The notes under the pieces: generated by a model
Told to the model about the DNA's origin: nothing
Database searches by the model: none
Seen by the model: only the letters and a program-made list of their open reading frames with translations
Assembly (NCBI GenBank): GCA_951406725.2
Contig: OX597838.1
Span: 22,630,001-22,694,000 of the forward strand
Length of the DNA stretch: 64,000 nucleotides
Direction: 5' to 3'
Origin: Octopus vulgaris
Lineage: Eukaryota
In this document: in pieces, positions 41,109-44,737 of the stretch
How positions within the stretch are numbered: position 1 is the first letter of the stretch
Layout of the letters: every line of letters begins with the position of its first letter
Position numbers and translations under genes: made by a program

Positions 41109-42330
41109 ATGCGCAAGAGTGGCTGTGTGGTAAGAATCTTGCTTCCCAACAACATGGTTCCGGATTCAGTCCCACTGCATGGCACCTTGGGCAAGTGTCT
41201 TCTACTATAGCCCCGGACCGACCAAAGCCTTGTGAGTGGATTTAGTTGACGGAGCCTAAAAGAAGCCCGTAGTGTATATATATATATATATATATTTATG
41301 AAAGAATGGAGTTGAACGACTTGTTAACAAATTTCCTTTATTTTCGACATATGTTTCGAAGGCTGCATATTCCTAATTCCGAAGGAATAAGGAGTACATT
41401 ATGCAGATTTCTCATCAGGAAAGGCAAGGAACTAATGTCGACATCAAAATGCACAAAAAAACTTTTAACTGACTGCTCTCAAGGAGCCCATGGCGATAAT
41501 GAGTGTCTGTTTATAAGGTGTGACGTCAGAGTGGCTGAATGTAGAAGAATCTAGAAGGATCTAAAGGTTCAAGGGTTCAAACGAAGTAGGAGGAGGGAGG
41601 CATAAGAATAGTAAGGTGAGAGGGTGCAGGTCAAAAGAATGGTGGGTTTAATTGATTTCTTTTATGAATGTGTGCCTGTGTGTGTGACTGTATATAACTG
41701 TCATAATGTGTGTATGTGTGTGTGTGAATGCGTGATTGTGTTTGTGGATGGGTAGATGTCAGAAAGCTGACAGCTGTGAGGTGAGGGGTCTGTGTCTGTG
41801 TGTTCGATTGTGTTTACTGTAGAGAAAGGGAAGTAGAGAGAGAAAGGGAGGAAGAGTCGGGCGAGGTGAGAGGCAACGCTGGAATGGGTAGTAGTTCTTG
41901 GAATTATAATAAAAACTTTTGACTATTGGGGTGAAATATAACAAAACTTTTTTGCAAATCGAGGGGTTATCTATATTAGTCACTATTCATATGAGTGAAA
42001 GGTGTGTCGTTTCCAGTGTAAACACCTGTAGGACCTTTCGACGATTGTATTTATTATATATATATATTTATGTATGTATGTATGTATGTATGTATGTATG
42101 TATGTATGTATGTATTTGTTATTTATGTCTTTTTTGTCCGCCGAAGCATCGCTTGACAACCGATGCTGGTGTGTTTATGTCCCCGTCACTTAGCGGTTCG
42201 CCAAAGAGACCGATAGAAGAAGTACCAGGCTTACAAAGAATAAGCCCTGGGGTCGATTTGTTCGACTAAAGTTCATGCTCCAGCATGGCCGCAGTCAAAT
42301 GACTGAAACAAGCAAAAGAATAAAAGAATA
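41109..42330 (+). mobile_element. SINE family A split by a ~760-bp HHR-bearing insertion
   Basis: Head at 41109-41275, 3' module at 42130-42330, insert at ~41297-42055. Confidence 0.8.
41333..41431 (-). ncRNA. Type I hammerhead ribozyme motif with long stem II and extended stem I
   Basis: UUCCUU-GCC-UUUC-CUGAUGA-GAA..CUGCAUA..UAUGCAG..UUC-GAAA-CAUAUG-UC-GAAA-AUA-AAGGAA: canonical core, GUC triplet, palindromic stem III ACAUAUGU. Confidence 0.9.
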
Positions 42331-42426
42331 TAAAACAGCTTTTATATTAATTCTTATCTTTTGTCTCGGGTTCGATCCGTGCCCTTCTTAAGCAGTTCTA
42401 TATATTTCCTAAGAAAGAATAATATG

Positions 42427-42775
42427 ACACCTTGGGCAAGTGTCTTCTACTATAGTCTCGGACCGACCAAAGCCTTGTGAGTGGATTTGCTAGACGGAAA
42501 CTGAAAGAAGCCCGTCATATATATGTATGTATATATATATATGTATGTATATGTGTGTGTGTGTGTTTGTGTTTGTCCCTCCGCCCCACCATCACTTGAC
42601 AACCGATGTTGGTGCGTTTACGTCCCCGTAACTTAGGCGCTCGATAGAATAAGTACTAGGCTTACAAAGAATAAGTCCTGAGGATCGATTTGTTCGACTA
42701 AAGACGGTGATCCAGCATGGCCGCAGTCAAATGACTGAAACGAATAAAAGAATAAAAGAAAAAGAATAAAAGAAT
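42427..42775 (+). mobile_element. SINE family A (5'-truncated)
   Basis: Runs from CACCTTGGGCAAGTG to the tail GACTGAAAC..AAAAGAA. Confidence 0.85.
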
Positions 42776-42785
42776 ATATTCGTAA

Positions 42786-42843
<58 letters not shown>

Positions 42844-43261
42844 TCGATCTAGCTGTTGTTATTTGTATACATACATACATACATACATACATACATACAT
42901 ACATGCCGGTAGATAGACAAACAGACAGACTGATAGACAGACAGACAGACACACACACACTCACACATATACAGCGTGCGATGGCTAAATTGTCGCCATT
43001 TTACATTTTTAATTTCGCGCATGCATATTGTAAGCTCCAATACGAACACTTGATGTGGAAGGCCAAGGAACTGTCAACGAACTTTTGTCAGAAAATTGGT
43101 TCAGACGCTTCAAGGAAGGTGATATCAACCTCGAAGACAAGCCAAGGTCAGGGAGACCTTCTGCTGTGGAAGATGTGGCTTTGCTTGAAATGGTTGAACA
43201 ACAGCCGAGCACAAGCGCTTGTACATTGTTGGCAGAACTTGGTCTTCTACAAAACATCATC

Positions 43262-43452
43262 ATGAATGATTGCACTTAGGAAGTTACCCTTCGAGACACA
43301 AGTCCGGGCAAGTCGCTCATGAGAACGCTCTCCTCTCTTTACGCCACCGATGTTATCCGAGGTAAAGGCAAAGGCCGATACAACTTGGCAGCTGTGACGT
43401 CGCAACTCAACTCGTTTCTTCAGCTGAGCGAACTGGAACAACGTGAAATAAG
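43262..43452 (-). mobile_element. SINE fragment (family of 33510-33827) nested in the mariner
   Basis: GCACTTAGGAAGTTACCCTTCGAGACACAAGTCCGGGCAAG..ACGCCACCGATGTTATCC is the reverse complement of 33610-33795. Confidence 0.8.
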
Positions 43453-43595
43453 TTCGGCCTTGTGAACAGATGCTGTTAAGAAGCTCTTTATCAACTGACC
43501 ACTGACCAGGCTCAACGACGAGTGAACATTTGCAAAGAACTGCAGGCAAATCTTCGAGGCACCCGTTTTTGGTATTGAATAATTGTTACTGGAGA

Positions 43596-43915
43596 ATTAG
43601 AAAAACTCTTATATATTTTGCAAGGAGGCCTTCACTTTCATCGCAACCTGGTGGTTACCGCCCGTTGACAAGGGACAAAAATCCCGAAACTAGTCCGAGC
43701 GTATCACTCAGGCTTGCGAGGAAGGGATGGCCTCCCTTTGCAAATACTTCAAGGGCACTGATATGGTGTCTAAAGCCAGCTAGAGACGACGATCTCTTGG
43801 GGCTTTAAAGCTACAGTAACACCCCCTCCCCTATGTGGTTAGCCATGATAAGATGGCTTCTATACTTTACATTATCGAGCGATTACTGTTTCAATCTCAT
43901 TCTGAGATTTAATTA
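43596..43915 (+). mobile_element. ~320-bp HHR-bearing insertion inside the mariner first catalytic Asp codon
   Basis: Removing it restores ACT GGA GA|T GAA AAC TGG (TGDENW). Confidence 0.75.
43651..43707 (+). ncRNA. Type I hammerhead ribozyme motif, U3-A8 core variant
   Basis: CGCCCG-UUGACAA-GGGA(CAAAAA)UCCC-GAAA-CUAG-UC-CGAGCG: perfect stem II, palindromic stem III ACUAGU, GUC triplet, stem I 5/6 plus a distal GUGGU/AUCAC extension. Confidence 0.8.
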
Positions 43916-44737
43916 TGAAAACTGGATCTATTTTACTAATACTAACAAGAGGAATCAATCGTTTGATTCAGAATTCAGACTTCAAAATTTGTTTTCATAT
44001 AAGGGCAGTTTGAACAGAAAGTCAAGTTCTGTATTTCGTGGAATTCCGAGGGAATACTGTTCTTTGAGCTTGTCCCAGATGGTCATGCTGTGAAAGATAA
44101 CCTTTATGCTCAACAACTGCAGTGAGTTTATGATATTTATAAAGCACTCTAATCTGCGTTGGTTAATCGAAGGATCATGCTTTTACAGCATGACAATATC
44201 CCAGCACACATTACCGATGTGACCCAACGCAAACTTGAGGAAGTTAATGGTTGGAAGTGCTGACGCACCCTGCCGAGAATCCAGGTCTTCCACCCTCAAA
44301 TTATCACAAGCCATTACTCATTTTCTGCATGGGTGGAGGTCGAACAATGAGGAAGAAGTGGAAAACGGGCGCAAGGAGTGTTTTGCTGCTAAACCAGCCG
44401 AACGGTATAAGCGTTGAATTGAGCTTCTGACACAACGATGACGACGGTCAATAGAATATTGCGGGTTATATATTGATAAATAAACATGTTTCGTAACTAA
44501 CTTGTTTGAATTATTAATACGAAATACGAAAAAAATGTTTGGCTCAACCTGAGATATATATATATATATATATATATAAGTGATTTGACATCTATCTCTA
44601 GCGTATAGGAATCCACTTCAGTGGCCATTTCTCTTATTAATTGTAATATAATTTTTAAATCTTCGGCTTTTTTGAACATGCTAGACCACTGGTTTAAAAT
44701 AGATGTTAATTGATTGATATCAATTTCTACCCTCATG

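Follow-up and report, generated by a model that had tools for sequence, protein, structure and literature searches.

A 320-bp stretch of the Octopus vulgaris genome interrupts a mariner transposase gene at an aspartate codon and carries a hammerhead-like motif whose core reads UUGACAA instead of CUGANGA. What kind of element is this, how did it come to lie there, and what does its unusual core signify? The window, i.e. the whole stretch of DNA that we analysed, comprises 64,000 nucleotides (contig OX597838.1, positions 22,630,001 to 22,694,000, forward strand). A sequence-only reading of it had suggested that the insert may be the integrated cDNA of a circular RNA. We find it very probable that the insert is a copy, recent and truncated at its 5' end, of a non-LTR retrozyme-type repeat with a 357-bp unit, likely inserted by the machinery of a Penelope-like element (PLE) and bearing a predicted ribozyme.

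The boundaries of the insert can be read from its host. Removal of either 43595-43914 or 43596-43915 (320 bp each) brings back the mariner frame TGDENW, as the sequence-only reading had proposed, and among 11 uninterrupted mariner paralogues a regular-expression search found three that read TGDEKW at the insertion place. The insert thus entered cleanly, with a target duplication of 0-1 bp, and at the 3' joint the letters that would come next in the repeat itself are the same as those of the target over 2-3 bases. Pfam recognises the right part of the mariner as Transposase_1 (E = 2.2e-8) and the left part as HTH_32 (E = 3.3e-5) and HTH_48 (E = 0.014), the latter two matches both falling below the cut-off. 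The aspartate that was hit is, we presume, the first catalytic residue of the transposase. The place had been identified correctly, but it carries no meaning: the mariner was long dead, with many stops and 72-76% identity between its right part and the nearest paralogues (most of which begin at the junction), whereas the insert is 99% identical to its own nearest paralogue, so the hit on the aspartate codon is incidental. A second, very high-copy repeat, probably a SINE, lies within the left part of the mariner (43245-43450). Two copies of a different repeat of ~200 bp, with an AAAGAAT-rich tail and adjoining microsatellites, are found at 42140-42340 and 42580-42780, and look SINE-like by eye.

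Table 1. Features of the insert and of the mariner that it interrupts, in window coordinates
Feature	Position	Strand	Basis
Insert, 5'-truncated copy of family A (about unit positions 36-355)	43596..43915	+	mariner frame restored by excision
Mariner transposase, left part (HTH region), decayed, with stops and a further repeat inside	43034..43595	+	HTH_32, HTH_48, frames
Mariner transposase, right part (DDE domain), decayed	43916..44300	+	Transposase_1, paralogues
Type I hammerhead motif	43647..43717	+	full-size helices I and II, loop 1/loop 2 elements; Rfam HH9 match, cross-family covariation
Variant core U3-U4-G5-A6-C7-A8-A9 (UUGACAA)	43665..43671	+	sequence and family counts
Helix II, 4 bp, loop CAAAAA	43672..43685	+	both partners altered in 3 of 4 pairs between families
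Palindromic helix III stub ACUAGU and C17	43689..43695	+	sequence; self-duplex -6.2 kcal/mol
Long hairpin with the hammerhead at its tip	43617..43744	+	folds, z = -5.1
Penelope-type 'tail'	43875..43915	+	between short 3' end (about 43871-43874) and long 3' end (43915)

The motif within the insert combines the conserved core, three helices, an NUH triplet (GUC) and a Watson-Crick 3-8 pair of a type I hammerhead. Helix I measures 6 bp and helix II 4 bp. Stem II pairs GGGA (43672-75) with UCCC (43682-85), the GAAA stretch occupies 43686-89, the ACUAGU palindrome 43689-94 and the GUC site 43693-95, and cleavage is predicted between 43695 and 43696. Core, stem II, palindrome and cleavage triplet are all present as previously described; stem I (43659-64 with 43696-701) contains one C-A mismatch that had gone unremarked. 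The Rfam model Hammerhead_HH9 (RF02275) matches 43647-43717 with E = 1.9e-6 and 32.7 bits, and the alignment includes the loop 1 and loop 2 elements. The gathering score of 52 is not reached, and the motif is a related fold, not a member of RF02275; at the gathering threshold, the Rfam scan of the whole window returned no matches. An E-value scan of 15 loci had at least two HH9 rows among the matches listed, where microsatellite matches to miRNA models dominate. A descriptor search for hammerheads found a single site in the window, and 100 block-shuffled windows yielded none; together with the E-value of the HH9 match, this places the motif above chance. The minimum-energy fold of the window copy forms helices I and II and lacks the active helix III. 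The helix III stub would close only between two copies, a dimer rule taken from the available text of PMC4209133.

The insert belongs to a repeat family, here called family A, with a unit of 357 bp, the period seen in tandem copies, and a GC content of 44% (0.444). Full copies continue upstream into their own 3' end at this period. The window copy holds 0.9 unit, without ~35 nt of the unit's 5' end, and its two ends lie 100 and 220 nt from the predicted cleavage site. When the 2.8-Gb genome (G000) was searched with the insert, 40 of 1691 candidates were scored and gave at least 75 matches, the top 30 of which stand at 94-100%, and the family is represented by hundreds of dispersed young copies. 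A 31-nt pattern near the 3' end has 768 exact matches in the genome and a 32-nt core pattern 223, and this excess of 3' ends is as predicted by 5' truncation. In one 800-nt tandem stretch, no frame beginning with Met exceeds 41 aa, and comparison with two PLE proteins gave nothing better than E = 0.48. Family A has the unit size of non-LTR retrozymes (150-450 bp), their GC content below 50% and their single type I hammerhead per unit, and natural monomers running from cleavage site to cleavage site, folded as circles, yield z = -5.0 and -4.8 (60 shuffles each). A mobile element of non-LTR retrozyme size, with other copies to be sought, is what the sequence-only reading had proposed, and the genomic matches and the non-coding unit support it. 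Its equation of 320 nt with the monomer does not hold, the insert being a truncated copy.

Exact core matches of family A divide into 60 with A8 and 163 with G8 out of 223; U3 is fixed, and a search with the C3 pattern found none. All 46 G8 cores among the 90 cores in fetched loci have GUU as the cleavage triplet, and the 44 A8 cores have GUC (35), GUU (8) or AUC (1). Contigs of four runs (X15, X16, X17, X1) show the GUU form as the majority by contig depth at window position 43695, and the runs bear three different organism codes, so the GUU subfamily is not confined to this assembly. These contigs cover the unit in short pieces, none of them bridging the empty site, and are uninformative for expression or polymorphism. 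Non-LTR retrozymes accumulate as linear and circular monomer RNA; among the records that contain the family A sequence, none is listed as RNA.

Three sister families show further states of the same pair. Family B, ~68-76% alike to family A, has C3-G8 in all 14 parsed cores, and its core pattern has 132 exact matches in the genome. Loci L103-L132 present it as an older, abundant family with C3-G8/GUC, its helix II having a C-A mismatch at the base. Family D, 77-80% alike to family A, has U3-A8 in 23 of 23 sampled cores, and the one copy of family C that we saw also has U3-A8. For the analysis of covariation, 17 motifs were picked by hand from the four families, 14 of them distinct, and their relatedness inflates the shuffle test. 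Among the distinct motifs, both partners differ in 8 of 19 pairs; at 3-8, seven motifs have UA, five CG and two UG, with none unpaired. Core, helices and loops stay paired across families that are 20-30% apart, which implies selection on the fold. The view of U3-A8 as a compensatory change is true against family B. The companion expectation, that other copies would keep the U3/A8 pairing, is borne out by the A8 minority and contradicted by the G8 majority. Judged from the sequences, the clan does have U3-A8 as a real compensatory state, which in family A is not that of the majority. Standard searches for CUGANGA would miss families A and D entirely. The U3-G8 core may well be impaired in cleavage: a Watson-Crick 3-8 pair is described as a requirement in PMC11167929 and in the accessible part of PMC3884650, and our literature search for activity of a U3-G8 core found no report.

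The order of these changes was addressed with a tree of full-length units, in which 59 family A and 18 family D rows were kept of 115, the trait columns were masked and family D served as the outgroup. It places A8/GUC at the base and G8/GUU in a derived clade with a support of 97, and does not reject an alternative root (AU p = 0.20). Nine diagnostic columns outside the traits side with the A8/GUC-first order and three oppose it, and the lower of the two diversity values, 0.041 versus 0.055, belongs to the G8 group. A tree with family B only as the outgroup and unmasked traits also has A8/GUC at the base, and two trees on shorter masked stretches place the root inside the G8 group. On the shorter stretches, a single clade of G8 rows was rejected (p = 1.5e-5) in a test confounded by stray A8 and G8 rows; one A8 copy (L153) lies within the G8 group. 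By these sequence comparisons G8/GUU is likely derived from A8/GUC.

The best clue to how family A moves is the anatomy of its ends, which the sequence-only reading had missed. We compared 90 distinct insertions from fetched loci, a sample biased by likeness to the query, by the core patterns and, for 30 loci, by selection with the 3' pattern. Inverted arrangements account for 35 insertions, direct tandems for 25 and single copies for 30. The outer 3' ends (n = 125) fall at unit positions 350-358 in 60 cases, at 308-317 in 54 and elsewhere in 11, so that two fixed 3' ends ~43 nt apart take 114 of the 125. Inverted insertions have one 3' end of each kind in 27 of 35 cases. AT makes up 84% of the 20 nt that follow the ends, and 52 of these 125 flanks contain TATATA. 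The 5' ends are ragged and spread along the unit, and readings of the repeat as a Helitron or as an element with terminal inverted repeats were dropped for that reason. None of 120 5' ends lies within 3 nt of the cleavage site, where ~2 would be expected if they were even; a class of templates made up of cut linear monomers is therefore not seen. The copies have no A-tail. PLE insertions are characterised, in the available part of PMC8557442, by truncation at the 5' end, partial tandem structure, a 5' copy in inverted orientation and, at one end, a 30-40-bp tail, and two internal start sites of reverse transcription together with AT-rich nicking explain PLE ends (PMC11167929). Family A presents these hallmarks of PLE mobilisation: two 3' termini set apart by a tail within the 30-45-nt range, partial tandems, an inverted 5' copy and AT-rich targets.

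The genome contains an intact element of the PLE type, with RT and GIY-YIG domains in 781 aa, many open copies and terminal repeats. Its copy at L092 (430-5672; also L093, L094 and L099) is a young autonomous PLE with a Cys-rich linker in the 781-aa frame and an upstream reading frame of ~350 aa. The 3' ends of this element use two sites 40 nt apart and mostly run into TA repeats (19 short and 7 long ends in 29 rows, with one duplicate locus per class). Its terminal repeat holds a hammerhead-like motif, UUGAUAA, of the U3-A8 kind, and its short ends have TTTACA in common with the short end of the family A unit. When the unit was locally aligned with the terminal repeats of two PLEs, shuffled sequences scored at least as high in 196 and 48 of 200 cases. 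The GIY-YIG census scored 150 of 6136 candidates and examined 35 loci, where nhmmer matched only two stretches that resemble separate insertions; no RT or GIY-YIG reading frame was found in, or joined to, the units examined. We infer the PLE partner of family A from the pattern of its ends rather than from an identified element.

Two candidates for such a partner were rejected. On contig C1, two hammerheads 5.65 kb apart enclose a set of reading frames that is of an unrelated LINE type and not a PLE; the locus (L091, G000:C1:68,118,500-68,128,400) holds a decayed element with endonuclease and RT pieces between two family A pieces. A PLE reading frame 1.3 kb from a family B fragment (L100) has a terminal repeat of its own, and the adjacency was put down to chance. 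Positions 1821-4983 of L100 hold a second PLE family, with a partial 574-aa frame 46% identical to the 781-aa protein, a perfect 766-bp inverted 5' copy and, in its repeat, a motif with the core CCGAAGA that looks hammerhead-like by eye and was not scored by the descriptor. A family C copy (L079, 9-181) with a U3-A8 core shares its helix III palindrome with the motif of the 781-aa PLE's repeat, and is a possible bridge to the autonomous partner.

The sequence-only reading had named tandem arrays as something to test for; the window has none (nhmmer gave a single match), tandem copies occur in family A, and family D provides a long array. Two family A loci, L049 (A8/GUC) and L029 (G8/GUU), are dimers with two hammerheads, one unit of L029 being altered in the motif. 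The family D array (L222, G000:C4, about 13,620,750-13,624,400) consists of 10.3 units of 355 bp, 99-100% identical, with a U3-A8 hammerhead in each unit (10 hammerheads), a 5'-truncated start, a short Penelope-type 3' end and a 9-12-bp TA-rich repeat on both sides. Its ends are those of a single insertion. One long run of reverse transcription round a circle explains it simply; unequal crossing-over once it had inserted, or an assembly error, may instead have produced it. In family A, rare variants are more often common to pieces of the same insertion (2 of 29 pairs in direct and 8 of 41 in inverted orientation) than to close pieces from separate insertions (29 of 4148 pairs), and for direct tandems this signal is weak. 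Since the window copy runs through the cleavage site, it was copied either from a circle closed by ligation or from RNA that had stayed uncut. The data agree with a circle and do not tell it from an uncleaved tandem transcript. With one hammerhead only, and a helix III that needs a second copy, the window copy cannot release a unit-length RNA and is probably a dead end.

The following sequence of events would account for these observations. The + strand would be transcribed from copies longer than one unit; the hammerheads of two units would pair via ACUAGU and cleave, after which ligation may turn the 357-nt monomer into a circle. A PLE protein would then nick AT-rich DNA, and reverse transcription would start inside the RNA at one or the other of the two fixed sites. 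Copying across the cleavage site and the unit junction, with variable stops, would produce truncated, partial-tandem and inverted copies. At the window locus, the long end would have served as the starting point, copying would have ended 320 nt further on, and it would be by chance that the product entered a dead mariner, duplicating no more than 1 bp. The U3-A8 pair found here is an inherited, already described form of the 3-8 pair. Against this explanation stands the rarity of long arrays in family A, unlike in published retrozymes: 8 of 90 insertions have two units or more, and the maximum is 3.0 units.

The step of cutting and circularisation is where this explanation has its closest rival, a variant of it in which the template is an uncleaved linear transcript of a partial tandem, or results from template jumping of the RT, so that a hammerhead inherited from PLEs is not needed and no circle is formed. 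We regard this as a serious possibility of somewhat less than even chance. It fits the most abundant subfamily being U3-G8/GUU, since the prevalence of the U3-G8 wobble and the uniform GUU of the sampled G8 cores imply that cleavage may be dispensable. Cleavage is unnecessary for PLE insertion in vitro, where hammerhead mutants had no effect on an anole PLE (PMC11167929). The absence of 5' ends at the cleavage site fits uncut RNA as well as circles, and few private variants are common to the units of direct tandems. The retention of paired core, helices and loops across divergent families speaks against it, as does the 10.3-unit array of family D, which is what rolling-circle copying would give. 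In a bolder version of the circular route, the clan would be a natural experiment on the reason why RNAs of the Penelope system bear hammerheads: a PLE protein writes circular 357-nt RNAs into the genome, with ~10 rounds of the circle in one event for the sister array, and the youngest, most abundant branch, U3-G8/GUU, spread faster despite its broken Watson-Crick 3-8 pair. We hold this to be unlikely; if true, it would mean that for mobility weak or protein-assisted cleavage suffices or is even an advantage.

Two further explanations dispense with a retrozyme altogether. The copies could be 5'-truncated stubs, i.e. terminal repeats, of a full-length autonomous PLE. All the end features are features of PLE insertion, PLE terminal repeats bear hammerheads, U3-A8 included (in the available text of PMC4209133), and such a parent could lie outside the part of the GIY-YIG candidates that our census covered. 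However, a full unit is preceded by its own 3' end at the 357-bp period and by no reading frame, the 800-nt tandem stretch has neither a frame nor similarity to PLE proteins, and a full-size hammerhead with loop 1/loop 2 elements is the form described for retrozymes, which together make this origin improbable. That a LINE, or recombination, spread a fragment of a SINE or satellite whose resemblance to a hammerhead is decayed or accidental is largely refuted and hardly credible. The Rfam score under the gathering value and the minimum-energy fold without an active helix III would suit it, as would an origin of A8 from G8 by CpG decay, which the A8 copy within the G8 group might reflect. The covariation across families, the uniform U3-A8 cores of family D, the two fixed 3' ends, the inversions, the missing A-tail and the shuffled windows devoid of the motif all contradict it. 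The reading of the insert as a PLE-inserted copy of a retrozyme-type repeat remains the best explanation.

As a single copy the window insert matters little, both U3-A8 cores and non-LTR retrozymes having been published. The wider family is more informative. Its ends provide a detailed Penelope signature for a retrozyme-type element, a route for which the case has so far been mostly one of co-occurrence and phylogeny. The three core states that occur naturally on one backbone (C3-G8/GUC, U3-A8/GUC and U3-G8/GUU) offer an easy test of whether spread needs cleavage. Specialists could make use of the anatomy of the ends, the sister array of 10.3 units and the abundant, likely derived U3-G8/GUU branch.

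The metazoan non-LTR retrozymes are among the closest known systems. The accessible text of Cervera and de la Pena 2020 (PMC7229834) describes 350-390-bp repeats in mussels and HHR_Amex1 repeats in the axolotl. Family A resembles the retrozymes of that text in its 357-bp size, GC content under 50%, one type I hammerhead, palindromic helix III stub, lack of a reading frame, self-paired predicted circle, tandem copies and autonomous PLEs in the same genome. It differs from them in its core, which is U3-A8 or U3-G8 and not C3-G8, and in being mostly dispersed, in runs of up to 3 units, with a circle that is here predicted only. Target duplications of retrozymes, when present, exceed 4 bp according to the available descriptions, compared with 0-1 bp at the window copy and the TA-rich flanking repeat of the family D array.

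Natural U3-A8 variants were reported by Perreault et al. 2011 (available part of PMC3088659), and U3-A8 hammerheads of the Cercyon PLEs of Schistosoma mansoni in 2014 (PMC4209133, as far as its available text goes). Family A has in common with the latter the covaried pair, the dimer-dependent helix III and the PLE context. In contrast to Cercyon, described in the same text as a coding PLE whose terminal repeat has a minimal motif, it carries full-size helices and loop elements on a non-coding unit. With PLEs in general (PMC11167929 and the available part of PMC8557442) it shares 5' truncation, partial tandems, the inverted 5' copy, a tail at one end, two 3' ends and AT-rich targets; unlike them, it has no RT or endonuclease gene, and no similarity to the two PLE terminal repeats tested was detectable. 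A 2026 preprint (bioRxiv 10.64898/2026.07.22.740005) proposes, in its available text, that animal retrozymes derive from PLEs as non-autonomous forms, and argues this from co-occurrence and terminal-repeat phylogeny. The terms 'tail' and 'target site' do not occur in its main text, so the end anatomy of family A is a separate line of support for the PLE route. Our search of the literature on octopus hammerheads, Penelope elements and U3-A8 cores found no description of this family, which supplements, Dfam or Repbase may list. Family A is a member of the group of non-LTR retrozymes, or non-autonomous PLEs, with a published variant of the hammerhead core.
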